From the IMG/VR virus record IMGVR_UViG_3300034198_013268, positions 1 through 64,000 of that record: a DNA stretch of 64,000 nucleotides, one strand, 5' to 3'. The notes beneath the pieces were generated by a model that was not told the origin of the DNA, did no database searches, and was given only the letters and a program-made list of their open reading frames with translations. Shown here in pieces: positions 8,443 to 40,683 of the stretch; within the stretch, counting starts at the first letter, position 1; each line of letters opens with the position of its first letter. The translations under genes were made by a program, and so were the position numbers. This stretch comes from a virus.

Positions 8443-8464
8443 GCACAATCTTCCCATATATAGC

Positions 8465-10192: not shown

Positions 10193-13100
10193 TTATTTCC
10201 CTTTGTTTTCAGGCATATTACGTACAAAATTGTTAATAAAAGCTGCGCCTTCTGCGGAGTATCTCTGTTGGCGTAGGTCTATGTTGTAGCGCTTTATTGC
10301 TTCCGCAACGAGCTTGCTGGCGATACCCTGACGTTTTGAATCTGGTGAAATAAAGACGTTCATGTTTCCTTTTTTCTCAAGAGGAAGGTCTTGAGGGTAG
10401 TGATAAACAATTCCTTTTAATATTCCTGAATCATCTCTCCAGAGAAGGCAATCAACCCATTGATTTGGTTTTAAACCATTCCCAGTTCCTTTAAAATAGG
10501 AAAGACCAGGAGGGCCTATTTTTTCAAATTGCTCAGCCTGGCTTTTGAATGGCCACGGCATGCCATTAAGGCTTTCTTCGACATCTTTCCAGGGCTTGCC
10601 TTTGAACGTCGGCATCTTGGCCTTTTCTTCCGAAGACCTGTACTTCTTAAAAGACCCTCCCATAGAAGGGTTGGGAGCAGCCATGTTGCCGGAAATGTTG
10701 CCCGTGTTGCTAGCAGAAGACGCAGGTTCAATAACACGTCTGTAGCGAATCTGTGTAGAACGAAGTGCTCTGTTTTCTTTGTCCCATGCCAACAGTTCCT
10801 CGGGGGTAACGCCTTCACCAAACTTGTCTTTGCGCGACTTCTTAATTAGTGCCCTTATTCCGCTCCGTATCTTTTTGTCAGAATCATTTAAATTTCCGTC
10901 AAAAATATCGCTCACAGATTCAGATAGTTTGTTTAAGAATTTGTTTTTTTCATTTTCATCGTACCAGTAGTAACCGTTGCGCGGCCAGTGCGATGCGCCA
11001 ATTCTTCCTTCGTCGCCCATACTATTTCCGTACAGGGATATTTCTGATATTCCTAACTCTCTGTATATTTCTTCGTTGCGTGCGTTTAGTGCAGTTGCTA
11101 TTCCCAGTCTTTGTGCTCCCGTTCCAAATCCTTTAACCTCCATCCATTTGTGTTCTGCTTCTGCCGTATCTTTGTCAAAGTACATAACCCTGATAAAGGA
11201 CCCAACACTATTTTCGTCGTTAACTCCGCTAGAAGATTTTCCTAAATATTTAGGCAGAATCTGTCCAGATATTTCTATGCGTTTTTTGTTTGGGGGAATA
11301 GGGTAGGCTGCGTCATCCCACCCTCCATCTCCAGTATCGGTTACTGTCACGGTTAGGGGAACTATATCGAACTTGTTCCCTCTGTTGATTTTTTCCCGGT
11401 CTATATAGTCTTTCTGTCCAACTATTACGCCAGCAAAAGCCTCTCTCATGGCAGCTTCTATATCTTTATTACTTCCGCCGTCCGCAATGAGTTTTTTTGC
11501 TTTTCTAGCTGCAGACCTCTCGTTTTTTGAGACAGTTTGATTCTCTGCAGATTTTTGTACACCGGAACTTGACATTTTTCCAGTAATGTCGTTTTGCGAT
11601 GCCCAAATCAAAAGGTCCAATGGAAGGTCTTTATCATTGAACTTGTCCATTGCTCCCGGCTGTTTACCTATAACGTCTCTAACTAGTTGCTTATCGGGGT
11701 CTGACAAAGCGTCAAAGGTGTTTTTTAAATCGTCGTCTTCTACGAATTTCTCTGGTTTTCTAACGGTGGGTTCAGCCGGTCTTGCTACGGGTGGTACGTA
11801 GTCTTTGATTGATGGGTCTATTCTGCGTTTGACCACTGCATCAAAGACTGTTCTGCGTGGAAGCTTCATATCTTCAGCTATCTTTTCAATACTTTTTCCA
11901 GCTTCAAAACTTGTCAAAATCTGACCATCTCGGCTTCCTTTTGAAACCGGTTTTGGGTCTACTTTGATAGTGGGTCGTCCAGCCATTTTAACCGTTTGAT
12001 TAGTGTCGTCAAAGTCGGCATGAACGTACGCAAGCGGGTCGAGTATTTTTAGGGTTCCGCCCTTTTTCTTCTCTGCAAGCAGTTTTCTAGTTGTTATGTC
12101 TTCAGAGTCCCAAAGGTAAAACTCATCTGCAAATTCAGCCACCTTAGGCATAATCCTGTAGTTGGTATTCATGACTGCCGGAATAAAGCTTGACGGAAGT
12201 CTTCTTGGGTCTGTTTGTTGACGTGCTTCTACGTTTGAGGTTAAAGCAGATTCTGGAGCAACGTTGTAGTGGGCAACAATGTCATAGCCTTTGGCTCTTG
12301 CTGCCGTTAGTGTTCCAAAGCCTGCGTTGTATTGCCCTGTTGAGTCGTACACAATGTCGAGGCCTTCTTCCAACGCCTTCACAATGGTCATATCAGCTAC
12401 CGTTTTAGATTCTTCATGAACGGCACTAGCCCAGTGAGGGTTACCGGCTGCGTGAAGCTGTCTAGCTTCAGGGAATAATGTTTTTATTTCATCAGCATCA
12501 ACATGGACTGCCGCATCAGCCTTAGGAATCCCATGTACCCCAAGGCGTCTGTCTGTTGATTTTCCTGAACCAGCTGAACCACCAACGGAAATAAATTGCT
12601 TAGGCCCAGTTTTTTTGCGTTTTGTGACCGTGGCAATTATCGCATTAACCATTGGCGTATAGGTGTTGTCAAAGCGCTCTTTCCAGATTTTTCGTGTCCC
12701 ACCAAAAGTGGCCGTCACGTCTACGGATTCTTCTCCCTGAAGAGGAGCGTAAAACCAAGACGTGTCTAAGGCTCTGGGGTCATTTATTTCTTTATCAGTC
12801 AAGTAGCTGGGTGTGTCTAGTTTTCCAACACGTTTTTGCATTGTGTCATCTATCGGCTGCAGGGGTCCTGCTGACATCTTTCCAGAAATACTAGAACTAA
12901 TCAGTTTTTTTTTAGAAGCTTTAGGGCCTCGTCCTCTCGGACTGTTATTAAAACCGCCATCTAGGTAGTCGTCGTCTATTGCTTGCCGTATTGCAGCTTC
13001 GTCTTCTGGAGATATTGGAGTATCACCGAATCCACTTGCTGGTCCTGGAAAACCACCAGGGCCAGGACGTTTTGGTCTTACACCAAATCCACCAGTGTTT

Positions 13101-16100
13101 TCACCTGGACCATTCGGTTCATCTGGTTTATCTGGACGTTTTGGCGGAGCACTTCCGGGTGGTCGCTTAGGTTGCGTACCGTACCTAACCCAATCGTCGT
13201 ACTCGTCAAATTCTTCAGAACTCCATGTTCTATTTCGTGGAAATTGTGTGTCTACGGTAAAAGGGGTGTCTGGCCAATCATCGGTCGCAAGTCTTCGATT
13301 TCGAGTGCTTGAAACGGTTGTGTCGGTAGGGTCGTATTGAGGGCTTGCGTCGCTGTCCGATGTAGAGGCAGGACGTCTTGCGGCGTTTGGTTGTGTTCCT
13401 CTATATCTATCGTATTGGTTTCTGGTAGAGGAATTGCTTAAAACCTCGTAAGCTTCGGATAGTTTTTTAAACTCTTCTTCAGCTTTTGGGTTGTCAGGGT
13501 TTACGTCCGGATGTGTCTCTGCGGCTTTTTTTCTGTAAGCTTTTTTAATAACATCATCAGAAGAATCTGGAGCTACGCCTAGGTCGGCATAATAATCTTT
13601 ATCCTTCCACTGTCGCGGCCCAGATGTTGCCATTTTACCCGTGATGCTGCCGTTGTTGTTCCATTGTGGAATATTGGGGTAGATGACATTGTTTTCATAC
13701 GTTACACCGCCAGTTGGAGACTCCCTGCCAGCTACTTCATCTATCGCATCAAGGAAAGCTTTATCTTCCTCTTCGGTTATACCCATATAAAAACCATGGC
13801 TCTTGTAGCGCGCTCTACCTGCTGGGTGGTCAAGACTGTAAGAATGGAAATGCTTACTTATTGGTTCGTGACGCTTCCACTCTTCATTATTTTTATCCCA
13901 GCCACGCCATGGCCACCGATGACGGTCATAGAATTGAGCCAAGCTCATTAAGCGAGTTAACTGCATTGGTCGTACACCGAGTTCGTCTGCTATTTCACCA
14001 GTAACTTTGGCTTCGTTTATCTGAAAACCTACCGGCGCTTCCCTTCTTGCTTTTGCTATGCGCCTATGTGCATACCAGCCTGCATGAAGAGCAAATTCTT
14101 CAACATCAGCATCATTTATATCTAAAGTTCCTTTTTTGTTTATTTTTTTTGACAACTTTATAGCCCTAGAAGACAACTCATCTAACGGCATGTTTATGTA
14201 TGCACGTTTTTTATCGTTCCAGTCGTGAGCTTCTTCTCCAGTATTTACCGGAGGTATTCCCATTTTCCCGGAAATAGATTTTGCTGTAACCCGTCCAAGG
14301 TCACGCGCAATTACCGGATTCATCCACTGTTCAGGCATTGCGTTGAGAATATTATTTTCTTTAGATTTTGACCCGACCGTAGCATTTGAAGCAACAGCCA
14401 TTTTTTGTATTGCATGTGACTGTATGTCTTGCGCGGTACGAATTGGCATGTTGTTTCTTTTAGCAAAACGTATTGTTGATTCGCCATCACTGAGGCGTCT
14501 CATCATAGACAATTCTGATGGCGTCAAAACAGCGTCTCCATAATTTGCTAATGCACGCTTGAAAGCCTGACGACGCTCTTTGTCAAAAGAGCTAATAAAT
14601 GCCCTGTGGTTTCGAACATGTGCATTTACCATCGATTCTGGTATGTTTAAGCGCTTTGATGCACGAGATGCTCCGCCGGCCTGATGTGCAGCCATCATGT
14701 ACGTGTTTTCTTTGGCAAACATTGAGTCTATATTGTCAAGATTAAAATTTGCACCGCTACGTTTTGTCAATCGTTCATCAGCGTTTCTTACTTTTGAAAA
14801 CAGTTTGTCTTCAAAAGAAGAATAATCTTGCTCAGACATTCCCATCATGCTGCGCATTTCATCAAACGAAGCGCCGTCAAGTCTACGCAATAGTACTTGC
14901 CTATCACCAGCAGATATGCCAGGAATATTGTGTCTGCTTAAGGCATCGCGATATATTGAGTTAATAGCAGGTTCTGAGGATTCAACAACTTTTGAGTATC
15001 TTTCTTGAGCTTTTTGAAGCTCTTCAGAAGTCATATTAAAAGTTTTTTTAGCTTTAGACATAGGAACTCTGTCATGGGTGAGAGCCATAAAAACTGACCT
15101 ATCACTATCTTCAAGTTTTTGACTAGCTTTGTTAGCCTTGTATCCCATTGATTCCAATAATGTTTTTACGTTATCTGCTGGAACATCGAACTGTTTAGCA
15201 ATGTCTTCGTAAGATTCGCCGTTTGTATGCATGAATGCAGTTTTGCGCATGGCGTCGCCGGCTGTCATAAACCCACCAACGCCTTGCCAATTTTGGCCTG
15301 GTTTACCTTGCCATTCTGCATCTATGGTGGCTTTGCTTCTTCTGTTCATTTCGCTTACACCGGCTTCAGTGAATGGCTTATTAAATAGCGAAGTTCTAGC
15401 TTTTTCAGCACGTCTTGATTGGAACATATTGGGGTCGTCAATTTCAGTAGGTCTATCAACCGGAGGAAGAGACTCAAGGTCAAAAAACTTAATATCTTTT
15501 CTACCTGATTCTTTAGCTTTTTCACGACGAAGAACATTCGCTCTTTTCATTACCTCGCGGTTTCTAAATTTTTGCATCTTTTCTGCGTGAACTAGCCCGT
15601 TCCGAATAAACATAGAATCGTTTTCATAGTCGAGCTCGTCATCTACGGCATCGCGTATCCACGCAACGTGACCAAAACCAGTGGTTATATTTCCATTTGC
15701 AATGTCTCGCACTGGAATCCATCTTGCACCGACCGCATCATCGGCTGCCTTAAATTCGGCATCAGGACTTACAACAAATTTTGTTGCGTTAACCTCTACG
15801 CCACCACTGAATCTTACGTCCCAGTCTTTTGACTTTATTGTCCCAAGTTCTCTAGTGGAAACGTCAGTCAGATTAGTAGTATCTATTCCTACTTCTTCTA
15901 GCAGTTCTCTGCGCGCTGCATCGGAGCCCGTTTCTCCTTTGTCTACAAATCCTCCAGGGAGAACCCACATATCGGTGGTGCTAGCTCTATGTGGACCAAA
16001 CCCGCGTTGAACCATCATCACTTCGAGTTCGTTTGTTTCTGGGTTGCGGCGCAGCACTACTGAGTCTGCGGCTCTTTGCATTTGACCTTGGTCTTTGCCT

Positions 16101-19100
16101 ATTACCCAATCGTCAGCGGCGTCAGAAGCATCGTAACCAATATGGGCATCGCTCTGATAGGGAATCAGGGCACGACGGCTCCAGCCCATGTTATTTCTTG
16201 ATTCCGCAACAAGTTCATGTGTCTCCCACGGTAACGGCCATCCTGCTTTTTGAACCCCAAGCATTTCAGCCGTTGCTGTTCTCATGTCCCTATGAGGGCC
16301 ACTTAGTGTATTTCCGGTATTGCGGTCAACAACATAAAGACCCTCAGCCTGCCCGGTAATTGAGTCAAATGTGTTTCTGACCTCGACGTCCAGTGCGACT
16401 GGTTTTTCTCCTGTGCGCGGCTTATATTTTCCAGTGCGCCATGCTCGAGCATTGTCTTTTCTGTTTCTAAGATAATCTGTTTTACGCTTACCCATTAATC
16501 CAGTGATGCCAAATGGGTCAATTTGAATATCTTCTACTGGAGCACGGTTAAGATAATTGACTATATTGCTGTCCGCAGACTCGGATAAGCCTCTTATTTT
16601 TCTTTTTGATGAGCGTACTGCTGTCGGAACATCTTCTATGCCGCCAGGTATTTTGTCAAGCTCACGAAACATATGACGCATTTCAGGGCTTGCATACCTA
16701 AAGGCAACTGTATCTTGATAGCGTTTTTGACGCCGACCACGCGATGAAGAAATTGCTTCTTTCAGATTCTTGTTGAGACCAGCAAAGTTACTACGCATGC
16801 GTTTGTAGATTGAAAAGTTATCACCATCAAAATCTCGTAAAATATTTGGGTCACGAGGAACGGACAAACCTAGAGCAGCATTTTTTCCAGCTTGACGCGC
16901 TCTATTTTCTGACATATTGGGGACGGAACTATCGTTACCGCGCATAAACCCGCTAACTCCAAGATTGCGAGCAGTAGAAAGAGCGGAGTCTATTTCTGAT
17001 TCTATTGCTCTAAGGTCTGATATTTTTTGGTCTGCTGCTTTTGTAATGCGCGCAGTTACTCTTGATGCCCCATCTCCACCTGTTCTGCGAGTCAAAAGCT
17101 GGTCGTGCTGCATGAACCAATACAGTGGTCCTCTTATGGATTCTCCAGTATCTGGGTCGTCATATCCAATAAACTGTCTATCAAACCTACGTTGACGATT
17201 AAGGTATCTAGCAAAGCTCTCTTTGTCCGGACGCCATCCCCGCGTCCAAATATCGTTACCATTTTCATCTTGCCGTCCAGTTTTGCGTGCTACTAAACTT
17301 GGTGGTCTTTGAATGAGCATGTTTTTTATGGCATTGCGTATGTTTTTTTGTTCTCTACGTATAGAGTCATACTCAAGGCCAGATTTAGCTTTAACTTCTT
17401 CTAGACGGGTTATCTCTTCACGAATTTGTCTTTTTACAGTACTGCTATCTGTTCTTTTACGACCAAATTCGTTTCTGATTTTATCAAGTCTTTTTTTCTG
17501 ATAATCGCCAAATCTCTGACTAACTCCAGCATCTGCAGTTTGACGTATCCGCGCAAAATCTTGGTTAGAAATGCCGTTGTCAACTGCGTGCATCTTTAAA
17601 GCATCGGCAACAATTTTTTCATCAAGAATGTTTTCATCTTGTGCTATTTCTGAAAAACTAAGTCCTTGTGATTCAAACAAACTCCAGAAACGAGCTCTTT
17701 CTTTTTTAGCTTTTGCACCCTTGTCAAGCAGTTGAGTTTTTTGTTCTGCTATTTTTTCTTCTACGGCTTTTCTTAGCTCTGCTCCGCTACGTCGCGCGCT
17801 TACGTCTACATCAAAATTTTCACCGTTTACAATACCCATTGTTGCTGCGCTATAAACGCCAGATGGAAGGGCGTTTATATCAATTGAACCATCAGAGCGA
17901 CGTGGCAGTGGTCCGCTCATTTCCTCCATTACAGCAATGAAATCATCCCATGCAAACGTTTCATCAGGACGAACAAGTTCTCCAAGCGGAAGACCATCAA
18001 TTCCCATGCCGCGAGATAATTCAGAAGTTCCTTCTCCATCAATAAGTTCGGGTTCTACGTTTTGATAACGCTGCATAATGTGACTATTTGTCATATCCCA
18101 CCACTCAGGTGAATTTAAATAGCGTTCAAATACGTCTCTTGGAAGCATTTGAGAATCTGCCTGCGGGTCGTACGGGAGCCCAGTATCAGGATTGATATTC
18201 ATTGGGTTGTTTCCCCATGTTGATGGGTCTTCTGGGTCTACGGCAGAAGGGTCATCGCTTCCGGCCCATACCCAGTCCTGGTCGAGATAACCAAAAGCAT
18301 CCTCAAATGGTTCTTCAGCATCCGGCATACCATCTTCTGGTTCCCCAAATTCATCTTCTTCTTGTGGTCGCTCCATCCATCCGGCTTGATACGCAACTTC
18401 AAGAAGAGCTTCTTGTTTGTAGTACCAGTCCTCAATGCGTTGTTGCAGCTCCATTTGTTCTTGTTGAAGCTTTTCACCCTCAGCTTGTATTTCAAGCATT
18501 GCTTCTTCCCAGTCTTTTTCCTGCCATGGCTTTCCGGTAGCTGGGTTGATTGGTGCTGGGTCGTTTACGTCTAGGGTGCCGTTAGCCATTGAATCGAGAT
18601 ATGCAAGGAATTCGTCCACTGACATATCGTCCGTGCTTTGTCTTTGACGAATAGCAGGAAGACTTGCACCTTGTGCGGGGTCGGGGACTAAACCATCAGG
18701 TCTATTGAGCATGTCCTGAACGGCCTGGTCAAAATTGGGGTCATTAGAATCAATGCCTATTTCGTTAATTCTTCGTTCGGCCAACTTGCGCTTAAAGGCC
18801 ATATCCATATATGTATCATCAACAGACTCAAGAATCTCATCAGCCAAAGAACGCCTATCGTTCATGTCTGCACTGGCTGCGGCTACTGTATCTATGACAC
18901 TTTGAGGGTTTGTCGTGGTTGGGTCAACTAGCTCTGGCAGAATAAATGTATCCCAAAAATCTGCTACGTCTTCATCTGACATGCCGTTTATATCAAGGCG
19001 TGCAAGATATCCATCAGGAGAATATTTTTTATATTCATCAAGGAAAGCACCAACAAGGGGGCGTTTAATTTGTGCTGCTTGAGCTAGTTCGTCAGGAGCA

Positions 19101-21235: not shown

Positions 21236-21341
21236 CGGCTACGTGGTGCGGAGGCGGGTTTTAGTGCTGCAATACCGGTCAATGCTGCTAACCAATAGTA
21301 GCCCACTTGCCTAACATGCGGGCAAACGTAGAAAGGCTTCA

Positions 21342-21536
21342 TTATTTTTTTGTGCCTTTTTCCAAAATCCATGTTGGATTATTTGAGAGAATTATTGACA
21401 AATTAAGTATTCTGCTTTTTTCTTTGGCTGACTCGATAAAACCCCAGTACACAGGATTGTCTTCGGTTCCCATATTTATGGTCGCGCGCATTTTTTCTGT
21501 GCCATCAGGGGTTCTCGCTATTACTTTAGGTCTCAT
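21342..21536 (-). CDS. 64-aa hypothetical protein coupled to the upstream giant ORF
   Basis: ATGA overlap, GAGG RBS. Confidence 0.65.
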   Translation of the reverse strand: MRPKVIARTPDGTEKMRATINMGTEDNPVYWGFIESAKEKSRILNLSIILSNNPTWILEKGTKK

Positions 21537-25249: not shown

Positions 25250-25254
25250 AAGCC

Positions 25255-25644
25255 CTACTTCATGCCAAAGTGATATGTATCCCAATCGCTAAGCTCAATT
25301 TTGTGTTTAGCGCAATAGTCTTGGATGGCTTCATTACGGGTCATTGGTGACTGCTTGTAATCTTGTGCTTCCATTATTTCTTTGGTGTATTCGGGCAGTA
25401 TTTTAACTACATTGAATACCATTTTTTTTTCAAGAAAATCTTCTTCATTTTCTGGTGTGCCGCGCATGTTTAGCGCATCAAGATAGTCAATCATTAATTC
25501 TTTTTTTGAAGACAAGCAGAAAGGTGGATATTCGGCCAGAATTTGAGCATCCTGGAACCCAGCGTTCCATGTTTTTTTTGCTTTAAAAAAAGCGGCTTTA
25601 TTTGCAGCGCTTAATGTTTCTGGGTTTACAAGTTTTCTTGCCAT
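25255..25644 (-). CDS. 129-aa hypothetical protein directly after the giant ORF
   Basis: ATG 2 nt after the 2228-aa gene stop. Confidence 0.75.
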   Translation of the reverse strand: MARKLVNPETLSAANKAAFFKAKKTWNAGFQDAQILAEYPPFCLSSKKELMIDYLDALNMRGTPENEEDFLEKKMVFNVVKILPEYTKEIMEAQDYKQSPMTRNEAIQDYCAKHKIELSDWDTYHFGMK

Positions 25645-25646
25645 TT

Positions 25647-31600: not shown

Positions 31601-32333
31601 CGGTTCTTTCGGTAAGTCTTCCAGCACGATACAGCGCTCCACGAGGCTCAATGCCTGCGTTGAGTTCGTTCTGACTTCTATCATCTATGGATTGAAGGAA
31701 TTGACCAAGTCGACGAACCGCACCCATAGAGCAGCCGAGACCGAGCCTGTTAGTAAACTGTCCACCATTTAACGTATCTTCAGGGCACCGCCAACCCTGC
31801 AGGTCAGTGTCCCATATTGCCCGCATTCCTTTGACTTGAAGCGTAAGGCTAGATAGTTGCTGCTCGAGCTTAAAGGCTTTTGCCTTGTAAGTTACAGCAT
31901 GCTGCTTATAAGCCACATCCATTGATGCAATCAAAACATCCGTTACTGGAAATGAATAAACTGGTTCAAAGTCTTCAACATCGTCTGGCTCCCCATAGAC
32001 GTCTTCTGGCGTATCAGATTTTGTTTCCACAATCTGCAGGAATGATTTTTTTTCAAATTCTTCACTTAGTCTCAGGGCCTCCTCTGGGGAAACAAGCTGA
32101 GACAATTCACCCAAATCTACAGCATTTGCTTTTTTGGGTGATTCGACAAATAGGCTTATATCAAGAGAATTAAAAAGTTCTTCATTTGTGAACTTGGAAG
32201 AGTTAGCCCATGTAGCCCATCGCTCGCCCTGTCCATGTGCGCCAAAAGCACGCATATCACCATTGGGGCTTGTTACTAAAAGAGCAAAGGGCTTACCGTC
32301 TATTTTGTCTTTTACGACTGAAATAGTTTTCAT
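25647..32333 (-). CDS. 2228-aa protein with possible C-terminal ADP-ribosyltransferase-like domain
   Basis: Long ORF with ATGA coupling; WRCPEDTLNGGQFT motif; C-terminal GFNSKP...IIARGV...GQG..HGRGEYW (function tentative). Confidence 0.75.
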   Translation of the reverse strand: MKTISVVKDKIDGKPFALLVTSPNGDMRAFGAHGQGERWATWANSSKFTNEELFNSLDISLFVESPKKANAVDLGELSQLVSPEEALRLSEEFEKKSFLQIVETKSDTPEDVYGEPDDVEDFEPVYSFPVTDVLIASMDVAYKQHAVTYKAKAFKLEQQLSSLTLQVKGMRAIWDTDLQGWRCPEDTLNGGQFTNRLGLGCSMGAVRRLGQFLQSIDDRSQNELNAGIEPRGALYRAGRLTERTADNVRAGRVEKFTKRSERRVRKATDRQLNPSFRNTYSALNPNAPMVARARTAAGLRMSRVGQDIAQRGFIDMSEGGRRARKVKPEITISQELRDKGGVWDENLPIYFNPMAGQLYETGAMTLNPWFGSPKKHNGTPSGEQEKFKFLTQEEMLAGLSAATRSYTWQDILNGTGDWADMDTGVRFYPSDWEELHALGLEVNGKYDHADDTLKNRRKAEKFIRRVSGDNKEFADAWVDYAFEDVLIDDAFNGGSLKPSRRRNIAKTILTFDPLSNTVKQKRKGWAGRILSLDPLADGETRRSRRRVDKKSKKENKVAGEIANLHDFFKNINVDESDAISNIEQNISANVRFYSPSKIGEPTPEWEMFKGLVDQIILDSGFDPGEDVVVSAERGLANGIEGYGLSGNPTAPDRGAYVSLYRHFPSGDLPSPADTSIELSNYRVVTLSDGKTEEQRILREEMSLRIVTGTDGKKHVVSIDMAQYWVDPKRYNSTTVTALDDRMVGPLVGRDDLLEPVTSPYSTGVASHLAMVLDSDGDMLAMEMNGQAPYSGGKDIEHNVVTGKTSTGITGQMSLGRHTDGQFVSPKGREYLDEFINTGNGNWWSNKSKRKNTRPIRRDIRGDQPEVPGIISRWMSGEGRQWARESAAAKRLEQGRMPKPTDNLRIRLAKRIARVGYDIRNEGVPEGMKITIPQSLSELPMISSRAEEATSPRDIWKLYPSNILEQLRFVPTPGIVDQNEWRDNPDNYGRILDLNNALRNIGGFTPYLTDFDNEHQDDLREVYNSALRDLNDPSKPDVPGSPSNLGHAIVREMDDKVYVYDDRQDHKPLVMVIDNVSGSSHIIGEDGQHLLSVVERVDNKGDRLMMLIAGESTREKIINEPKKSTFTERLTGKFRKRGLKKAPASRQPQRMASRGVQRSKARSGLTYPQTTTGDFLDPSKTYPAHVVDGINRNLHTSLDSLRAEWRSHLKIGPNDPISEDAALDYLEDLKKSNPRLSGIRSGSLHNLLVLSEWENSNDFFLVNNLKPSLRNSIIDDVGIPTGVDRKKKRNFTPHKPTPSSSGGLAQSLGIYDQPVATVRTPGWVRPNDIKPQAPGVATRVITGPSLDPGVGNKALNISYMPNGYIDNNTGLYVEDLSGLEPSALDVYDRSIIPEVDPSTGRYRDFPELQITVNPAIRPKQYVRITAGVDLSADNPALEITTDPRAVKQITDVIPTFNEAVDATKTAQGGRNEEFPRLVKVDFSDPNGGTLAGLSVDRNYADVIAAAGDSRMDNGFFRPYPMDPTNEANPSRIDTSSGSSRPTVNDNLSLQDIRELGMDPFMPHRRFYTPDGDMFVDNGQTGLGQLHLDAIKSMNAALQLEDVTRAVAEALQNNDTKAIGVLQGWIGPIDQAKLNSLRAQADKQWKITLETIRGVHSYTANKMEQDLATYMMSPGNRVALLRYVANGNVMEQMENLLNTHIVHDPDVRDAVTLAERQDLESVAKRLNRQILARRARQASGTSTRQDFGFFDDAPFVLDPHGGLPISNQPNRSPQEITELVQQHRADGFPNAPEVDPTTGAVIIDEISDEHVDALALMDEAYKEYKAGNRSVAGHPDLVGREFHDTDAMMMGSMWEWGGFNSKPVLLSDKELEEMATNVDSDGNPTHLIIARGVNDSWSRGVQYTAGQLAQESLNGERFIPGQGMSQHGRGEYWSLVPVSWSQMHGTDGTTLGLISQESIMSAEVLDGLFGQNSATYEGIWSIVNAIGAPGFPGGVNSRHGDTRVFNIAPNSFAPDPVTGLIDTNGLQSEIDRLTTTDGPMTVEGITSGGWSVPSSIMSGLFPPSGASPAEQVEYAQYRQKLNAWIEQTLNYVVQIASQRQDISQPGQAGKDAIEHNKKLDRAIHTLTYLAPENWALMMGVDAIITPKGLSSDGLDKRDIIPSQLWKSLIGVNPNNPNTGKGNGNVVRVLNRSGIAQSNHTWNLGSARDALRNWRMPDGQQIPHIRNRDWQ

Positions 32334-34393
32334 TTACCCAATCCTAGTATCTTTAAGAACGTAGCGCGAGAAGACGAAAGCATATCGAGTCTATTTTTAA
32401 ACATGCTTCCAACTATCTGTAGGTGAACCTTGTCAGAACCGCTCAGCGCGCCATCTATGACTAGTCTTTGACGCATTTCTTCAAAGTCAAATTCTTTAGC
32501 CCTGCTGATTAACTTGTCAAACATTAGTACAGCTTGTTTTCTTTGCTCGAGTTTTAACTTTTCAAAATGCTGTCTATACATATTTCTGAGGTCATCCTCA
32601 AAAAAATCTTGCATTTCTCTTCTGATTCTAGCCCTGTTAGACGATGCCGTTCCTTCTGCAAGTCCAGCCATAGGATTTATGGAAGCAATGGCGTGCATCT
32701 TGCCACGTACGTTTACGGGCGCAATAGTTGAAGGGTTTCTTTTGTATGTGTCAAGAAGCCAGTCTGACATTGCTATTCCAAGAACTTCTCCAGCTGGTAT
32801 CTGTGTGGCGTCAATAATTCTATTCTGAGAACCTGACTGAATTGCGTCTTGAGCTTCAGAAATCAAGTAAGAACGACGAGCTCCAGTTCCTGTAACTCTA
32901 ACTTTTGGAGCTATTAAACCCATATATCTTTGCAGCTCTGAAGAAACGGATGCGCCTATGTGGTCATATTGATGTGTTGGGGCTATTTCAAATATTGTTT
33001 GACCATCAGCTCTTTCATGAAGAGTGACGCCGTTTTTAATTTTTCCTGTTTTGTACAGCTTGCTGCGCTTTAAAGCTTCGGCTCTTATTCCGGGAGCAAC
33101 AAACTCTATAGACCCATTATTGTTCAAGTGCCTTACGGCACCGGACAAATCATCTATTTTTTCTACTGGTGTAGGGGTATTGGATGATTCTGCACGTCCT
33201 TCTACGTGACGATTTTTAGGGTTTTTAAGGTAAAAAGATTCGTAGTGCCAACGGCGTATGCGTGTTTTTGTATTGCTGCCTGGAAGCTTTACTTCAATTA
33301 CCTCATTAGGGTCATCAATGTTAGGGAAGTTTTCGGAGTACCTAATGGCATCTTCCATCTCCGAGGCTACGTATCTAAGACGTGCAGCGGGGTCTCTGCT
33401 GTTGTTTATTTCAGCAGCAACATTTACCGTCTTGCCAAGCTTGCGTCTTTCACCAACGGTAAGCGGTCTAGCTTTTTCTATATTTAGTGTTCCGCCGCCT
33501 TTAAGTACGTAGCTTATTTTATTAATACCAGTATTGGACAAGAGACCGAGTTCTTCAACGCCTATATTTTTTGCATCAAATGCTGTCGTTACGTACGTAG
33601 CCCCCTCCATGTCCCTGTTGTCAGGGATTGTTCTCAGAACGCCAGCCGAAACTACTGGTTCCAAAACAAAACCATCTCGTCTAATCATTCTTGTGGTCGG
33701 AACGTCTATCCCAGACATAGCTTCAAGAATTGTTTTAGTAGCAGAAAGATTTGCATTTCTATTAAATGCTGAAACTTTTGGAATTTGCGGCGCTCTTGAT
33801 TGAATAACTTCACCCGATATATTGAGCGGTTTTACAAGTTCTCCACCTGGTGTTCCATTGCCGCCTCTACCGCCCGCGTTACGCAGGGCATTTCCTATTG
33901 CCTGCCCAATTATGTGAGGGAAATCAAAAAGCTGTTTTCCACAAGTTGAATAAGTTGCGTCAGTAAATCTTCCGCCAAATTGAAAGCCTTCTGGGCATCT
34001 AAAACCACGAGTGGGTTTGCCTGAAAAAAAATGCGGAGTTGGGTGCCTTGGTATTCCGTTGGGTGTTACGGCCTGCCATCCAACGGAACGCGCGGGGTTT
34101 CTTGCTACCGAGGCGTTTCCAGGGGTTATTATACTTCCAGCGGACTGAAGACCTTGCAATATTCCGCTATCAGAAGTAATTGTTCCAACTTTTACGTCGT
34201 AGTTTCTTGTTCCACCATTTCTCTGCATTGCGCATTTAAAAGCTACGGCGTTTGCGCTGTTGTCAAGAGCACGCATAGGAGCATAGAAAGCATTTGGATG
34301 CTGTATTGCAAGCGTCGGCGAAAAGAACCTAGTTCTATAAAATGAAATTTCTGATTTTTGCTCGCAGCAATTAGAAAGAGATACTGTCTTCAT
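32330..34393 (-). CDS. 687-aa protein with degenerate HipA/PI3-PI4-kinase-like C-terminus
   Basis: FRCPEGFQFGGRFT motif; MGLIAPKVR...SDWLLDTYKRNPSTI resembles D.L..N.DR...N with the Asp replaced. Confidence 0.6.
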   Translation of the reverse strand: MKTVSLSNCCEQKSEISFYRTRFFSPTLAIQHPNAFYAPMRALDNSANAVAFKCAMQRNGGTRNYDVKVGTITSDSGILQGLQSAGSIITPGNASVARNPARSVGWQAVTPNGIPRHPTPHFFSGKPTRGFRCPEGFQFGGRFTDATYSTCGKQLFDFPHIIGQAIGNALRNAGGRGGNGTPGGELVKPLNISGEVIQSRAPQIPKVSAFNRNANLSATKTILEAMSGIDVPTTRMIRRDGFVLEPVVSAGVLRTIPDNRDMEGATYVTTAFDAKNIGVEELGLLSNTGINKISYVLKGGGTLNIEKARPLTVGERRKLGKTVNVAAEINNSRDPAARLRYVASEMEDAIRYSENFPNIDDPNEVIEVKLPGSNTKTRIRRWHYESFYLKNPKNRHVEGRAESSNTPTPVEKIDDLSGAVRHLNNNGSIEFVAPGIRAEALKRSKLYKTGKIKNGVTLHERADGQTIFEIAPTHQYDHIGASVSSELQRYMGLIAPKVRVTGTGARRSYLISEAQDAIQSGSQNRIIDATQIPAGEVLGIAMSDWLLDTYKRNPSTIAPVNVRGKMHAIASINPMAGLAEGTASSNRARIRREMQDFFEDDLRNMYRQHFEKLKLEQRKQAVLMFDKLISRAKEFDFEEMRQRLVIDGALSGSDKVHLQIVGSMFKNRLDMLSSSRATFLKILGLGK

Positions 34394-35069: not shown

Positions 35070-35143
35070 AAAATTGGCCTTTGCTGGATTGTTTCTTTTA
35101 TTAATTGTACGCGCTTATATGTGCGTACTGTAAGTGTCAATAG

Positions 35144-35491
35144 TTAAATTGAGGAATTGCGGAATATGTCTTTCACCCCAAGGTGTAGTCCATTTATAGC
35201 AACGTGTACCTTTTCATTATAGGGGTTGTACTCTTCCTCAGGCATACCATCGAGTCCTGTACCAAAGTATTTATCTCTCCACTTTTGGTCATCCCAGCGT
35301 TCCGACCATAACTCCTGCTGAGTGGTTGTAACTTCTAGTTTTTCAAGGTCCGACCTGTTGTGGGCAAAATCCCAGAAAGGAACTACGGTTTCTTTTGAAC
35401 CTATTTTTACTACTCCATTGTAGTCAATGGCTCCTGGAACAAAATAGAGGGTTGAGCCATCTCCAAATTTGCCAACAAGTACTTTTTTCAT
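35144..35491 (-). CDS. 115-aa hypothetical protein coupled to the upstream giant ORF
   Basis: ATGA overlap with the 1731-aa gene. Confidence 0.75.
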   Translation of the reverse strand: MKKVLVGKFGDGSTLYFVPGAIDYNGVVKIGSKETVVPFWDFAHNRSDLEKLEVTTTQQELWSERWDDQKWRDKYFGTGLDGMPEEEYNPYNEKVHVAINGLHLGVKDIFRNSSI

Positions 35492-38400
35492 GCTGAAGTA
35501 CTCGATTTCCTTGAGTTGAGTACTCTTTCCATCTCTTGAGCAATTTTTTCTTTTATTTCATCCTGAAGATTAAGACGGATTGCTTTTTCCGCATCCGCAG
35601 ATTTTGGCGCTCTTGAATTATGTGTGCTTGGGGAAAATACGTCTAAGCCGGCCTGGTTTTTAACGGTTAGTCCAATCCCCTTGCCGTCAAGATATTCTTT
35701 AAAATTCTTTGCAGCCATGAATGTTTCTAGTCTTTTCATGTTTTCGGGGATGTAATTAGCTTCACGGAGGTTTTTTACAGCATCTAGTTTTGCCGAAGAT
35801 GTAATGCCCATTTTGAGTATTGCATCATCAGAAAGAGGGTCTTCTTTAAAATTGGCAAAAGACTTAGGTATAGCGTTGTAATCTATAGCTACGTGTTCTA
35901 TTTCTTCTGGTTTTACACCGCCGAGGGTTAAGGACTCCATGGGTGCGTGTGTTCTCTCTGTAATTTCCGAACCGTCCGTGTTTCTGCCAGGACGAGTTCT
36001 GTGCGCAGAGAAGTCTTTTTTCCATTTTCCGTAAAGCATTTCAAGCGGGCTTATGTTCCATGTGTCATCGGATTTAACGCCATCGTGCCCGGAATGTATC
36101 AATGCTTGCTGTATCAGCTCAGAGTTATCTGAGTTCATCCCAACAGGTCTAATGTGGTCATTTACGGCATCTCCGTACCCATAAGAGGTTCTAGCAGATA
36201 CCTCTGGTCTTAATGTTAACTCAACGTCTCCGTATGTATCTACTCGGCCGCGAACACCATTGGTAGAGGGGGCAAATTCTGGGCTATACCTCTGCGGGTC
36301 AGTTCGTCCTGTTTGTGTCAATCGGTCAGCAGAGTCTTTCAACTCACTTTCAAGCCAGTCTTGATGAACTACATGACCGGAGATTGGACGCATTTCTTCT
36401 GGGGTGTCTGGGTGGATACCAATCCAGGCTTCATATTTTTTGCGAATGTTGTTTCCTGTAGCGTTTTTTCTAGCAACTCCAGAATCAATAACGTTTTTTA
36501 TAGATGCGGAAGGAACTTGTATGCGCACGCGAGGGTCTATGCCGGCGTGAAACTCATTTGCTGCAATTCGAACATCCCTAGCTAATGCTTCTTCGCTTGA
36601 GTTGGCTATGTACTTCATGAAATCAGGGTCGAGTCCGCTTAGTTCGTTTAACATCCCACGGTCAGGGCCGTCTATGTTTGGATATCTATCGCTTGGGTGA
36701 ATGGGTGAAACATTTTCACCATTTGCTAAAGCCTTGATGTGAGATATTCTCTTTGTCAAGCTGTCTGCATAAGGAGTTCTGCGTGTCTGTAGTGTCTGAA
36801 CTGGGAGGGTTGAAGCACCACGCAAAGGACCGTTTATCTCATCTGCATACTTTGTACCTACGTCAGTTCCAAATGAACCACCTTTTTTAACGATGGCTTC
36901 TTTGGCATTTTCATTTCTTTGTGCAACCGACGATGCTGACATTTTCCCAGAAATATTCGAAGAAATTGGCTCGTTTTCGACAGAATCAATTTTACTCCCG
37001 GCGTGAAAACGACGTAAATCATTGTTCCATTCAAATACGTTTAACCCCACTTGCGGCGTGCGCATAATGCTGGATTCAGGTATTTCATATTCAGTTATTT
37101 TTCCGCCAGCCTCTGTGTAAGCTTCGTCAAATGACTTCTTTTTATCTGTATTTCTAAGCTTTAAGAATTTTTTAACATCAAGAGTTGAGTCGTCATGTTT
37201 TACCCCTACTAAACGGCCATTTTTATTAACGTGCTTGCCACGTTCTGCTGCTACCTTGAGGTCGTCTACTGTTTCTCTTGAGACAAATACGGTGTTGTCA
37301 AAAATTGATTCAGCACCTTTTTCTCCATCATTGGTTATTGTCGTTCCAGTAACTGGGTTTTTTTGACGATGCAGTTTTCCGTCAGGCATTAGAGAGTATT
37401 TTGAACCATTCTCCGTAGTGAATGACTTCATTTTTCCAGAAACGCCTTGTTCGTAATTGGCCATTTCTTTTTCATAGCGCTGCATATCGTCTTGATATTG
37501 TTTGCGTTTTTGTTCAACTATTCTTGGAATAGAATCAACATCAAGTAAACCTTGAGGAGTGTCCGGGTTAGTAGCGGCTCGTTCAAGTATGCGCTGGACA
37601 ACCTCTGCGGAAGCAAGTGCATCGGCGTCTGCCGTATGCCAACCACTTCCAAGGTTTACATCAAGATATTCAGCTAAAGGACCCAGGGAACTTGAGGCTT
37701 TTTTGGTCCCATCTTTTGCTACCTGTACGGGTCCGTCGGGGTTTTCTGGAGTCCATCTTGGCAGTAGCTCATCTGAAAGCGCTTTGCTGTCTATGACTCC
37801 AGCAGGAGTAAAACTCATGCCTTCTTGTGCAAGTACCCTATTGAGAACTTCTAGGTCAAATGGAGTGTACTGACCGCCAAGAATAGGGTTTTCGCCCATG
37901 AATGCAATAAGTTCTTCGTGTGCTTGTTTTATAGTTTTTTGCTGTGCAAGGTAAGCATCCGTAAGTGGTTCTTGAAGGTCGTTTTTAAGATTTCCTTGAG
38001 CCCATTCTCCCAATGGGATACCTGGATTCATAAAGACATTAAATCTATCTATGACTTTCCCACCACGCATACGAACAGCGCCAAGCTGTACAGGCATGTT
38101 TCCATCGGCACCAAATCCTGTAGTTTCGTAATCAAAGTAAATAATGTCTAGCTTGTTATATCTATCGAGCATCTCTTGATAGCTTTTACACCCTCTAAAA
38201 ATGTCAATTAGAGAACCCGTCATTGGGCCATTATCAGGCTCTCTTGGGCGCGTTGGCTTTGATGCCATCTTCCCAACTATCCCACTAGAAGCGGTCCTGC
38301 GTTTCTGTTGGCTATTTCTGTTTACGGCACTTCTGACCCTATTTGCGTGCAGTGAGTCTCTTTGAAGTTGTTGACCGGTACCCATATGCCCGGAAATATT

Positions 38401-40683
38401 CCATTGACCTGGTGATATGCCATTCATCCGCTGGCCGATGTCGTTTATTTCCCCGCGTATGCGTGGTTCTTCTGCGGCAACATGTGCCAGCCATTGACCG
38501 TGCAATGCATGTGCTGGGCTCATTGGTACAAAATTTTCGCTTGGGTATTTTTTTCTGTAGCTTGCTTGTAATTTTGCATCAATAAAAGAATCAACAATGT
38601 TTTTTGTTCCAGCTTTTTGAGGAACTGGAACTACTGGTTGACTACCGCCAAGCTGCCCTCTCAAAAGTCTACTGATACCCATGCTTGTTTTTGGTCCAGT
38701 GCTTGGGTCCATGGTTGACTCGCCAAAAAGTCTCATAGTTGCAAAGTACTCTGCTCTTGCTTCTACGTTATTTGATTTTGCATAATCGCCACCGGCAAGT
38801 TCTGCCATTACTGCATGTTCTTCAGGAGTTACGTTAATGTTGTTAACAAAAGCATCGGTGAAGTTATTATGAAAATTAGCAAGGTCTGTTTCTAGGTCTA
38901 TTCTTCTATGACCAACTCTTCCTCCTGTATAATTGCCAGTTTGAAGATTAAATGCAGCCTGCCTAATGGCATCAATACTTGGATGATTCATCGGATTTTG
39001 TATTTTTGACAAATCGATTTGCCATCCTCCAACTTCTACGTTGGGCCTTCTTGAAGTAGCAGGACCTGCTGGGTTTAATGTTCTGAAAGCTGGGTTAATT
39101 CCACCATTTGGCAAGATTCCGTACCTGGTAAGTTGTTGATTATCTAGACCAAGAGCATTTAGTTTATTGCCAAAATCCAGCAAGTGTCCAAACTCGTGAG
39201 TTGCTAGATAATGAGCTTTCCCTTCAAATGAGTGAAGTCTGCCGCTGGCATTGTGAAACTGATTATACGCACTGTTTTCACCTCTGCAAAAAGCAAGCAG
39301 AGCGGCTGGGTTTATCTCCATCGTTACATGGACTCCGCCTTGGGCTGCCGAGTTGGCTTTTTTTGCTGCTGCTGTTGCGGCTACACCCGCAGACCTTCCG
39401 CCAGAAAGAATGCTCGGGGCAAAAGGTTTGACGCTTATTGCAACTGCAGTAGAAGAATCACCATCTATTTTATCAACGATGCTTAATCTTGTCATCCATC
39501 TGGCTGCATCTGGATTATTGAGCATTTCATTAATTTGCCCTTCCCAGAATGTTGTCATTATTTTTTTAGCTTGTCGGTGTTCAAAAAAACTTAACCCGCC
39601 AGGGAGGGCATTTTCAAATGCTTCGTCTATTTCGTTTGGGTCGACATTGGGCAAAAGTTGCGTCATGATATTCATGAAGTTCTCTTTTATTGATATGTCG
39701 CCAATCTCATGATAAGTACCGCTAGCATCAGGAAAAAGCTGTTTTAAACGTTGTCTGCTAATTCCGCCTTTGGGAGCGTCTCTAGCATCTCCAGTAAATT
39801 GATAGTGTAGGTGTTGCGCCTGGGAAGTCAGGATTCTCCCGCGTAGTATTCTTTCTTGTTCCGACAATTTATGGCTAGTTACGCCAATTACGGAACCCTT
39901 AATGTTTTTTCTTTGTTCCCTTGAACTCCCTTGCATTGCTCCAACAATGCCGTACTCGCCCAGTGCTGTTCTGATTCTACTTCCAACAGGCATCGAAGCC
40001 ATTATTGATTCAAGTTCTTCTGGAGCAGCTATCCTTTCGCCCGAAGCGCTATAACGTGTAACGTTTGGCCCCCCATTTTCTATTCTGTCTCCGATTTGCC
40101 CTGACATTTGAGCAGAAGCGGTCATGCCTCTACGAACTGCTCTTCTTGCTGAACCTGCGGCTGTTTGTGGTGTAACAATAAAGCAGTTACTGCCCGTTAT
40201 GTCGGTGAACTGGTTTGCTGCTGGAGTCCCTGGAGGGCAGCGCAATTTATTCTTGTCATCAACCCATAGTCCTCGTCCTTGCGCTACTCGGCTAAGTAGC
40301 GTGGGCATGCTTTCTTTTAGCTTGGGGCCAAGTGATTTAAAATCAAATTCATCGAGACTTTTAAATGATGGCGATTTTCTATTGCGCCAAAACTCATCAG
40401 TAACATAGTTTTCATATTCATGAAGTTCGTTTGTACCAGCTTTGCAAAGAAATAGGTTCTTGCCTGGCGGTACAAGCGGTATCGGGTCGCCTTGTTCCCA
40501 CGTTTTTATGTACTCTTCGTATGGATTGGCAAAATTGGATTCTTTTTCAGCACCTTCTTCTTTTTTGGAAGACGGTGGAGAATCTTTTTTTATTTCATCA
40601 GGCACGCTCTTGACTAACGACCCATTATTGGCCGCAAATCTTTTTAGTGCTTTATTAGCAAATGAATCTTTGTCCCAGCTCAC
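35488..40683 (-). CDS. 1731-aa polyvalent protein: zincin metallopeptidase, DEDDh (DnaQ-like) exonuclease, DUF3626-like domain
   Basis: THEFGHLLD plus YAKSNNVEARAEYF; FDYETTG...PFDL...HTADADA; RPISG...YGDVEL.LRPEV..RTSY..GD; five linkers. Confidence 0.88.
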   Translation of the reverse strand: MSWDKDSFANKALKRFAANNGSLVKSVPDEIKKDSPPSSKKEEGAEKESNFANPYEEYIKTWEQGDPIPLVPPGKNLFLCKAGTNELHEYENYVTDEFWRNRKSPSFKSLDEFDFKSLGPKLKESMPTLLSRVAQGRGLWVDDKNKLRCPPGTPAANQFTDITGSNCFIVTPQTAAGSARRAVRRGMTASAQMSGQIGDRIENGGPNVTRYSASGERIAAPEELESIMASMPVGSRIRTALGEYGIVGAMQGSSREQRKNIKGSVIGVTSHKLSEQERILRGRILTSQAQHLHYQFTGDARDAPKGGISRQRLKQLFPDASGTYHEIGDISIKENFMNIMTQLLPNVDPNEIDEAFENALPGGLSFFEHRQAKKIMTTFWEGQINEMLNNPDAARWMTRLSIVDKIDGDSSTAVAISVKPFAPSILSGGRSAGVAATAAAKKANSAAQGGVHVTMEINPAALLAFCRGENSAYNQFHNASGRLHSFEGKAHYLATHEFGHLLDFGNKLNALGLDNQQLTRYGILPNGGINPAFRTLNPAGPATSRRPNVEVGGWQIDLSKIQNPMNHPSIDAIRQAAFNLQTGNYTGGRVGHRRIDLETDLANFHNNFTDAFVNNINVTPEEHAVMAELAGGDYAKSNNVEARAEYFATMRLFGESTMDPSTGPKTSMGISRLLRGQLGGSQPVVPVPQKAGTKNIVDSFIDAKLQASYRKKYPSENFVPMSPAHALHGQWLAHVAAEEPRIRGEINDIGQRMNGISPGQWNISGHMGTGQQLQRDSLHANRVRSAVNRNSQQKRRTASSGIVGKMASKPTRPREPDNGPMTGSLIDIFRGCKSYQEMLDRYNKLDIIYFDYETTGFGADGNMPVQLGAVRMRGGKVIDRFNVFMNPGIPLGEWAQGNLKNDLQEPLTDAYLAQQKTIKQAHEELIAFMGENPILGGQYTPFDLEVLNRVLAQEGMSFTPAGVIDSKALSDELLPRWTPENPDGPVQVAKDGTKKASSSLGPLAEYLDVNLGSGWHTADADALASAEVVQRILERAATNPDTPQGLLDVDSIPRIVEQKRKQYQDDMQRYEKEMANYEQGVSGKMKSFTTENGSKYSLMPDGKLHRQKNPVTGTTITNDGEKGAESIFDNTVFVSRETVDDLKVAAERGKHVNKNGRLVGVKHDDSTLDVKKFLKLRNTDKKKSFDEAYTEAGGKITEYEIPESSIMRTPQVGLNVFEWNNDLRRFHAGSKIDSVENEPISSNISGKMSASSVAQRNENAKEAIVKKGGSFGTDVGTKYADEINGPLRGASTLPVQTLQTRRTPYADSLTKRISHIKALANGENVSPIHPSDRYPNIDGPDRGMLNELSGLDPDFMKYIANSSEEALARDVRIAANEFHAGIDPRVRIQVPSASIKNVIDSGVARKNATGNNIRKKYEAWIGIHPDTPEEMRPISGHVVHQDWLESELKDSADRLTQTGRTDPQRYSPEFAPSTNGVRGRVDTYGDVELTLRPEVSARTSYGYGDAVNDHIRPVGMNSDNSELIQQALIHSGHDGVKSDDTWNISPLEMLYGKWKKDFSAHRTRPGRNTDGSEITERTHAPMESLTLGGVKPEEIEHVAIDYNAIPKSFANFKEDPLSDDAILKMGITSSAKLDAVKNLREANYIPENMKRLETFMAAKNFKEYLDGKGIGLTVKNQAGLDVFSPSTHNSRAPKSADAEKAIRLNLQDEIKEKIAQEMERVLNSRKSSTSA

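Follow-up and report, generated by a model that had tools for sequence, protein, structure and literature searches.

Why should some 33 kb of giant open reading frames (ORFs) separate two phage genes that usually lie side by side? The question is raised by the window analysed here, the first 64 kb (64,000 nucleotides) of a single 73,421-bp virus contig (IMG/VR record IMGVR_UViG_3300034198_013268), whose minus strand holds a phage head module: portal, prohead protease, an acidic protein, the giant ORFs and the major capsid gene. The protease-capsid adjacency usual in HK97-type modules is interrupted here by putative cargo genes over a distance that the initial annotation of the window put at about 33 kb and that we measured at 32,973 bp (9868 to 42841). 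Four of the intervening ORFs share a short linker peptide, [IV][STVG]GxM. We examine the proposal that these four ORFs encode head-cargo polyproteins in which the linker is the cutting site and the S78-type prohead protease the likeliest enzyme, a reading that we hold at about an even chance.

From the acidic protein to the capsid gene, the ORFs encode, in order, 1731, 232, 687, 2228, 1250 and 3680 amino acids (aa); we refer to the giant ones as F, C, B and A, and to the 687-aa ORF as D. The initial annotation placed the four giant ORFs correctly, but its length of 1240 aa for ORF B did not hold (21533-25285 gives 1250 aa from a TTG start).

42841-45171, minus strand: prohead protease protein, 776 aa, with an S78 domain at aa 28-171, DUF6321 at aa 222-293 and a long C-terminal half
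35488-40683, minus strand: putative giant cargo ORF F, 1731 aa, five sites giving six segments
25647-32333, minus strand: putative giant cargo ORF C, 2228 aa, one site (aa 808-812) giving two segments
21533-25285, minus strand: putative giant cargo ORF B, 1250 aa (TTG start), three sites giving four segments, DUF3626 at aa 1030-1119
10193-21235, minus strand: putative giant cargo ORF A, 3680 aa, nine sites giving ten segments of 150-817 aa
8519-9868, minus strand: HK97-type major capsid protein, 449 aa (Phage_capsid, E 2.6e-41)

A repeated linker at module junctions

The four giant ORFs contain 18 copies of [IV][STVG]GxM (nine in A, three in B, one in C and five in F), each of them where the initial annotation had listed it by the lowest base of its Met codon. 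The enrichment for which this annotation had proposed a test was evident in both comparisons: 2000 shuffles of the 8,889 aa in the giant ORFs yielded a mean of 0.496 copies and a maximum of five, and the other 111 six-frame ORFs of the 73,421-bp genome that reach 100 aa or more, with 21,806 aa in total, held two copies. Alignment of the sites extended the consensus to [GSN]-I-[ST]-G-K-M-[SAG]-[AGS]-[SG].

19394-19408, minus strand: ITGRM, ORF A aa 610-614
16943-16957, minus strand: VSGFM, ORF A aa 1427-1431
16493-16507, minus strand: ITGLM, ORF A aa 1577-1581
15266-15280, minus strand: VGGFM, ORF A aa 1986-1990; BLAST matches of relatives' helix-turn-helix (HTH) modules begin at aa 1994/1997
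14261-14275, minus strand: ISGKM, ORF A aa 2321-2325
13631-13645, minus strand: ITGKM, ORF A aa 2531-2535; in a low-confidence stretch (predicted local distance difference test, pLDDT, below 50) ahead of the J domain
12875-12889, minus strand: ISGKM, ORF A aa 2783-2787; end of a pLDDT<50 stretch, with the zeta-like fold about two residues on
11573-11587, minus strand: ITGKM, ORF A aa 3217-3221; edge of a pLDDT<50 stretch, borderline
10682-10696, minus strand: ISGNM, ORF A aa 3514-3518; ahead of the GNAT-like end segment
24788-24802, minus strand: ITGAM, ORF B aa 162-166; immediately after leader A (described below)
24275-24289, minus strand: ISGKM, ORF B aa 333-337
22958-22972, minus strand: ITGKM, ORF B aa 772-776
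29898-29912, minus strand: ITGQM, ORF C aa 808-812
39934-39948, minus strand: IVGAM, ORF F aa 246-250
38383-38397, minus strand: ISGHM, ORF F aa 763-767; pLDDT<50; orthologous sites of relatives read ISGRM or LTGAM
38266-38280, minus strand: IVGKM, ORF F aa 802-806; pLDDT<50; start of the exonuclease module, which is located elsewhere in relatives
37429-37443, minus strand: VSGKM, ORF F aa 1081-1085; short low-confidence joint from the exonuclease to the next module
36940-36954, minus strand: ISGKM, ORF F aa 1244-1248; pLDDT<50; LTGAM at the orthologous site in lineages L046 and L048

At the nucleotide level the sites were variable. All four Gly codons were used, as noted in the initial annotation (GGA 8, GGG 8, GGT 1, GGC 1), Ile was encoded by ATT, ATC or ATA, and Ser by AGC as well as TCC and TCT; the motif is thus kept at the protein level only, and not in the DNA. 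Genuine gene starts of this genome have GGAG 6-10 nucleotides upstream, and the motif sites are without such a GGAG. The varied codons together with the missing GGAG indicate that the linker is a signal in the protein, rather than a ribosome-binding site or a recombination hot spot based on DNA identity.

A position matrix of the sites, run against the capsid, portal, protease and scaffold-like proteins, returned nothing comparable. Flank composition was tried as a further mark of the sites and rejected, since the contrast was too weak (polar or small residues 70% in the 15 residues upstream and 73% downstream vs 63% overall). Two segments of ORF D, a protein conserved across lineages, also resemble the linker. 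VRGKM at aa 562-566 (window 32696-32710, minus strand) aligns with ISGAM or ISGSM in orthologues, in the context N-[IV]-x-G-x-M-[RH]-A...S-I-N, and may be a further site or a part of the fold; the strict match IVGSM at aa 660-664 has atypical flanks.

We then compared the sites with the domain content of the giant proteins. ORF A has a Nudix domain (aa 1721-1846), an HTH array, a DnaJ domain (aa 2547-2609), a zeta-like kinase (aa 2875-3028) and a weak GNAT match (aa 3602-3652; E 0.0014, 19.4 bits vs a 27-bit cut-off), and ORF F has a zincin-like module (aa 251-767, HEFGH at aa 496) and an RNase_T exonuclease (aa 849-1028). Pfam E-values were 1.4e-22 for DnaJ, 1.6e-20 for Zeta_toxin, 2.1e-15 for NUDIX, 1.4e-8 for RNase_T and 6.7e-8 for DUF3626, and the HTH match was weak. 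None of the 18 sites falls inside a Pfam-confirmed domain envelope, and those domains all lie between sites. The earlier claim that linkers bracket or precede the modules therefore stands for the Nudix, DnaJ, zeta, exonuclease and DUF3626 segments and, weakly, for HTH; the GNAT assignment is weak, and the zincin segment has no Pfam match. In ORF C, no family was found aside from the site (Pfam, PHROG). Its aa 813-2228 (window 25650-29897, minus strand; 1416 aa) make up the largest unexplained piece, with almost no match in related loci, and the best score in a language-model Atlas search with this piece (0.77) was not usable.

Predicted structures placed the seven sites modelled at or beside joints between modules. 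Two AlphaFold2 models with alignments were made, for ORF A aa 2500-3260 and ORF F aa 700-1300. In the first (model numbering), sites lie at residues 32-36, 284-288 and 718-722, and pLDDT is below 50 at 1-41, 259-289 and 722-734; the zeta-like fold begins about two residues past the Met of the second site, and the third site is borderline. In the second, the sites at 64-68 and 103-107 are within a low stretch (56-107), that at 545-549 is within another (541-554), and that at 382-386, with low confidence at 382-384, forms the joint from the last exonuclease helix to a beta-rich module. All seven modelled sites are in or beside pLDDT<50 stretches, although such residues make up about a quarter of the models (198/761 and 129/601). 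The location at domain boundaries suspected in the initial annotation is thus seen, at low-confidence junctions, for each site modelled.

Related phages, leaders and the wider head module

Public virus contigs gave 227 related loci for the protease and 326 for the capsid, of which the best 80 of each kind were used; locus counts include near-duplicates, and the protease alignment was made on 23 chosen relatives. In these relatives' ORFs of 900 aa or longer, which total 93,869 aa, the strict motif occurred 125 times; the shorter six-frame ORFs, with 343,128 aa, had 55 copies (near-duplicates kept). The same kind of linker was found flanking different modules, as the initial annotation had proposed looking for, and in forms specific to each lineage (lineages are given by our handles):

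This phage: I[ST]GKM
L084 and L085: ISGRM (ISGRM-G in the closest relatives)
L087: ITGAM
L041: VVGxM
L046, L048, L057, L053, L078 and L080: L[ST]GxM, including G-L-[ST]-G-[AS]-M
L044, L055 and G001: GPVGxM
L063: [DG]-P-T-A-S-M (PTASM)

Each lineage repeats its form across its non-orthologous sites. Constant across all forms are a Gly or Ala two residues ahead of an invariant Met and a small residue behind it, so the general pattern reads hydrophobic or Pro, x, Gly/Ala, x, Met, small residue. Four orthologous positions of ORF F retain the site, each genome in its own form, while linker length and sequence vary. Among the best 150 matches from 1.84 billion representatives, 21 proteins are at least 1500 aa long, 11 of which carry 6-15 copies of one lineage-specific form. 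A search for ORF F homologues among 50,697 phage records gave only seven weak matches, all to the exonuclease part, and hence no cultured phage with a counterpart of the rest of ORF F.

In some relatives the protease itself heads the chain. A complete 174-kb relative with terminal repeats has 12 sites in a protease-headed ORF of 3190 aa and 10 in an ORF of 5347 aa, and another lineage has a protease-headed ORF of 3984 aa. At least one site, in the form of its own lineage, follows the Pro-rich stretch in 16 of the 23 related protease proteins, one of these (L060) probably by chance; there is none after this stretch or in its place in this phage, L003, L005, L025 and three motif-less lineages. 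The motif is not enriched in L060, L067, L070, L075 and L079. Cargo genes in these lineages stand apart from one another, at 430-1300 aa apiece, and every one has the leader B described below (R-C-P-x-G). The C-terminal half of the protease also differs in motif-less lineages, lacking both the D-G-D-x-D-G segment and the Pro-rich stretch. Because lineages with separate cargo lack the motif, the motif goes with the joining of modules in one chain, and not with cargo as such.

Two conserved blocks recur near the N-termini. Leader A, a 58-aa block common to ORFs A and B (62% identity), has the core D-x-D-G-D-G...F-D-G-T; a similar segment is also N-terminal in separately encoded zeta-module proteins of other lineages. 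Leader B, R-C-P...[QR]-F-T...C, is common to ORFs C, D and F, and the block around it (aa 118-185) is the only part of ORF F matched by the motif-less lineages. We suggest that leaders A and B may be head-targeting elements, one per chain.

20243-20416, minus strand: leader A in ORF A, aa 274-331
24803-24961, minus strand: leader A in ORF B, aa 109-161, with the first site directly after
43381-43476, minus strand: leader-A-like D-G-D-S-D-G segment in the protease protein, aa 566-597, then a Pro-rich stretch
31731-31793, minus strand: leader B in ORF C, aa 181-201
33941-34003, minus strand: leader B in ORF D, aa 131-151
40183-40242, minus strand: leader B in ORF F, aa 148-167

The modules between linkers have changed places among relatives. 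The exonuclease module (F aa 806-1106) occurs in L008 at residue 2272 of an ORF of 2621 aa, with positions of 1204 in L018 and 319 in L092; the module at F aa 1086-1248 recurs in L041, L046 and L048, and several lineages encode the C-terminal module of ORF F on its own, in a gene of about 340 aa. L087 has the order DnaJ, GNAT, zeta, and this phage DnaJ, zeta, unknown, GNAT. Overall, order or host protein differs among relatives for the exonuclease, the aa 1086-1248 module, zeta, DnaJ, GNAT and Nudix. Of 88 internal BLAST match starts, 24 lie no more than 15 aa from a site, vs 7.0 expected. The suggestion in the initial annotation that the motif marks module-swapping boundaries was therefore borne out at the protein level, where modules are reordered at the sites; recombination through linker homology is unsupported, because the linker DNA is not conserved.

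The remainder of the head module is of the HK97 type: a portal, an S78 protease and an HK97-fold capsid with an N-terminal delta-like region are all found.

45278-47551, minus strand: portal protein with a fused MuF-like C-terminus (Pfam)
40947-42431, minus strand: acidic, Met-rich protein of 494 aa with a weak PepSY match
47803-49107: large terminase, divergent from the head module

The protease assignment rests on Pfam (Peptidase_S78, E 5.2e-11, with DUF6321) and on PHROG 80, head maturation protease (E 2.2e-25). An ORF of 480-560 aa lies directly after the protease in nearly all related loci, and the acidic 494-aa protein is probably the scaffold, which would place the cargo genes between the scaffold and capsid genes. 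In the capsid protein, K-S-I-G-Q-M-F occupies aa 104-110 (window 9539-9559), K-[ST]-[ILV]-G being conserved at aa 104-107, and the Pfam domain begins at aa 166. The C-terminal half of the protease contains a Cys/Gly-rich run, C-G-C-G-G-A-C-G-G ... C-G-G-S-C-G (aa 439-470; window 43762-43857, minus strand), and similar runs also occur in motif-less lineages.

The nearest cultured relatives of the capsid (46-47% identity) are Brevibacterium phage Cantare and the Gordonia Bendigovirus phages, contractile-tailed phages of Actinobacteria with separate genes between portal and protease (RNA ligase, ADP-ribosyltransferase and large hypothetical proteins). A resuscitation-promoting-factor-type transglycosylase domain is encoded at 4637-5662, plus strand (PF06737, E 3.3e-13). 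Taken with a G+C content of 42-48%, these features hint at a low-GC actinobacterial host. The gene adjoining that of the capsid, 7909-8481 (minus strand; 190 aa), codes for an Asp/Asn beta-hydroxylase domain (E 7.2e-16), and 49668-51102 (plus strand) holds a phage recombination pair, a Rad52/22-family annealing protein beside a PD-(D/E)XK nuclease. ARAGORN found no tRNA or tmRNA in the window, 1817-1896 included.

Proposed processing and rival explanations

From sequence and models we infer packaging, cleavage, enzyme, scissile bond and injection as follows. Protease, scaffold-like protein and chain would enter the procapsid together, the chain by way of its leader; once activated, the protease would cut the chain at its linkers inside the head, giving about twenty separate proteins. 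[quoted passage not shown] The likeliest scissile bond would be that between Met and the small residue, with a small residue at P3, any residue at P2 and a small one at P1'. The analogy is with giant-phage prohead proteases, whose A-x-E rule, with the cut before Ser, has the same arrangement but for Glu in place of Met; a cut after Gly/Ala, modelled on the herpesvirus assemblin rule, would be the alternative. Judged from the sequence, the linker peptide is probably a cleavage site of some kind, and the S78 protease has perhaps an even chance of being the enzyme that cuts it. A prohead protease is indeed encoded in this head module (Peptidase_S78, PHROG 80). Pointing to it are the own-form sites in related protease proteins, the protease-headed chains of some lineages, the parallel between the linker layout and the measured rule of SPN3US gp245, and the expectation of Iyer et al. 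(2017) that assemblin-like peptidases within polyvalent proteins process them.

Several observations weigh against this reading. The phage's own protease, scaffold-like protein, portal and capsid contain no strict site. The S78 domain is 66-80% identical to that of this phage in 18 of 18 aligned relatives, motif-less L075 and L079 included, and since it is conserved alike across motif forms and motif-less lineages, no co-variation of enzyme and site is seen. Motif excess is lacking in 10 of the 21 large database relatives. The capsid G-x-M, considered as a cargo-type motif at the delta-domain border, was rejected as support: across 65 aligned capsids the Met position holds M in 39, L in 19, A in 6 and V in 1, and it does not follow the cargo form (in G001 the capsid has Ala and the cargo PVGxM). 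Likewise, IAGRM in the protease (aa 359-363), aligned with ITGKM or ISGRM in some relatives, was not counted, being weak evidence because the conserved block around it, G-R-[MA]-x-x-L, is without Met in L055 and L063. Ends of BLAST matches are not enriched near sites (10/106 vs 7.8 expected); with starts enriched and ends not, conserved domains begin right after the Met and variable linker precedes it. A cruder endpoint test (+/-30 aa), blurred by end-cut and near-duplicate loci, was mixed, showing no enrichment for ORF A (22/176 vs 26.7 expected), with 10/19 vs 2.9 for B, 49/132 vs 22.4 for F and 0/19 vs 0.5 for C.

Neither of two candidate discriminators separated the possible enzymes. When the S78 domain (aa 1-215) was modelled in complex with a 45-aa piece of linker, without controls, the score was 0.00 against a mark of 0.32, which counts neither for nor against this enzyme. 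Presence or absence of an enzyme was rejected as a discriminator, as the S78 domain and the zincin-like HExxH module both occur in motif-bearing and motif-less lineages.

The linker might instead be cut, in the head or after injection, by the zincin-like metallopeptidase (MPTase) of ORF F (aa 251-767), which we consider unlikely but still a serious rival. Its HEFGHLLD has an Asp three residues on, a feature of a widespread phage-type MPTase according to the main text of PMC5512222, where it is also proposed that the MPTase domains found in polyvalent proteins do the processing. The language-model features of the ORF F module are similar to those of zincin clusters (0.91), but it has no Pfam or PDB sequence match. 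Most lineages have it as the leading module after leader B in their first cargo protein, and HEF[GA]H was seen in 19 loci. Its identity between lineages is 26-38%, vs 66-80% for the S78 domain, and with this far greater divergence it could track the lineage-specific site forms. An HExxH module is nevertheless present in motif-less L060, L070 and L079, the site layout resembles the rules of prohead proteases, and N4 vRNAP, ArdC and TraC1 bear MPTase domains yet travel uncut (PMC5512222, main text). A further reading, in our view distinctly improbable, is that the linker stays uncut and serves as a docking or handling signal or a conserved hinge, for instance by binding to the scaffold-like protein, the portal or the inner capsid surface and so tethering the modules of an intact chain. 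One motif per module, in flexible segments, within an HK97-fold shell such as that which encapsulin cargo-loading peptides serve, would suit this role, as would the lack of a canonical site in the phage's own capsid, scaffold-like protein and protease; the lineage-specific forms would suit any co-evolving reader. Yet the chains already carry a dedicated conserved leader, and separate cargo proteins have the leader without the motif, which ties the motif to joining and not to loading; protease-headed chains of 3,000-5,000 aa would also be hard to eject uncut.

That the motif is a gene-fusion scar or an internal translation start, with Met as the former or active initiator, we regard as very improbable. 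Met followed by a small residue does look like an ordinary N-terminus, conserved blocks begin just past the Met (the 24 of 88 match starts), and an 891-aa database protein, P0001, 94% identical and matching A aa 2787-3241, begins exactly at the Met at 2787, although its gene call may have been truncated where the contig ends. Against this, the four residues before the Met are conserved as protein with varied codons, no Shine-Dalgarno sequence like that of true starts is present, the PTASM form has no GG at all, and lineage-wide uniformity of the upstream residues would be left without a reason. On balance we favour cleavage at the linker in the head.

Comparison with known systems

Polyvalent proteins and protease-processed head cargo are already in print; the linker is undescribed in the passages of papers examined, and no printed description of it was found in the main-text literature searched. 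Should the linker prove to be cut, the predicted processing of polyvalent phage proteins becomes a rule that can be tested at exact sites, a first consensus would be available for an HK97-type head protease acting on cargo, and about twenty injected proteins (J-domain, zeta-like kinase, Nudix, exonuclease, HTH and unknowns) could be delimited and expressed singly. The site forms and the leader-plus-linker grammar could help to annotate metagenomic phage cargo and to load foreign proteins into phage heads. More tentatively, and at somewhat less than an even chance, uncultured phages forming a widespread group, whose hosts are probably low-GC freshwater Actinobacteria, may share a polyprotein cargo strategy in which one leader per chain loads up to a dozen unrelated enzymes and a Met-type linker is read by the phage's own HK97-type head protease, itself heading the chain in some lineages, so that the enzymes are set free in the capsid. 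Were this so, the linker would be a portable 'load together, cut apart' tag and define a new S78 specificity class, and the cassette-like exchange of effector modules would be explained.

The T4 internal proteins IPI-III and Alt have a capsid-targeting sequence that is removed by gp21, and this cargo is injected with the DNA. The combination of an N-terminal address peptide with a protease site is as proposed here; T4 has one Glu-type site per small protein and no multi-module chains, whereas the chains here are multi-module. Herpesvirus assemblin, which shares a fold class with prohead proteases, cuts between Ala and Ser in hydrophobic-x-Ala-Ser. RNA-virus polyproteins resemble the proposal in their embedded protease, short lineage-specific sites and many products. 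Both kinds of virus have eukaryotic hosts, however, the polyproteins make replication and structural proteins, and the substrates are not homologous to those described here. The encapsulin cargo-loading peptide offers an analogy only, being located at the cargo terminus, whereas the present motif is internal and repeated.

Similar in content are the polyvalent proteins, predicted to be head-packaged and processed by MPTase or assemblin-like peptidases (Iyer et al. 2017; PMC5512222, main text). As there, many unrelated effector domains occur per polypeptide near portal, terminase and capsid genes: at least two per chain were found in ORF A (NUDIX, DnaJ, Zeta_toxin, HTH) and ORF F (RNase_T with the HExxH module), and the genes are located in the interval from protease to capsid. 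The published repertoire takes in GNAT, zeta-like kinase, Nudix neighbours and zincin MPTase; ORFs A and F have Nudix and zeta-like domains, a weak GNAT match and a zincin-like candidate. DnaJ, present in ORF A, has no occurrence in the main text of that paper. The same main text gives no linker or site motif ('linker' occurs 0 times, and 10 'cleav' passages are without a motif). It describes the assemblin-like peptidase as always C-terminal in polyvalent proteins, whereas the protease is N-terminal in the chains of relatives here. MuF-fused polymorphic toxins also tie an effector to a head component, and the portal here has a MuF-like C-terminus; in the portions of PMC5512222 and PMC9503650 consulted, the effector is fused directly to MuF, whereas the cargo chains here have leaders of their own and no MuF fusion.

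A close parallel in processing is provided by the prohead proteases of giant phages (phiKZ gp175, 201phi2-1, SPN3US gp245), which, in the excerpts consulted, likewise combine a head-module protease, one short consensus and internal or ejected proteins. SPN3US gp245 cuts head and ejection proteins, and itself, after A-x-E, P4 being Val and P1' Ser, at a total of 14 sites spread over 9 proteins (excerpts of PMC10052503), and this layout of small, x, P1 and then small matches [GA]-x-M followed by [SAG] in the linker. The giant-phage enzymes are, however, of the T4 gp21 type with Glu at P1, whereas an HK97-type (S78) protease and an invariant Met are found here. Their sites, again in these excerpts, mostly remove one N-terminal propeptide from separate proteins; in the chains described here, up to nine sites (12 in a relative) would split one chain into unrelated enzymes.

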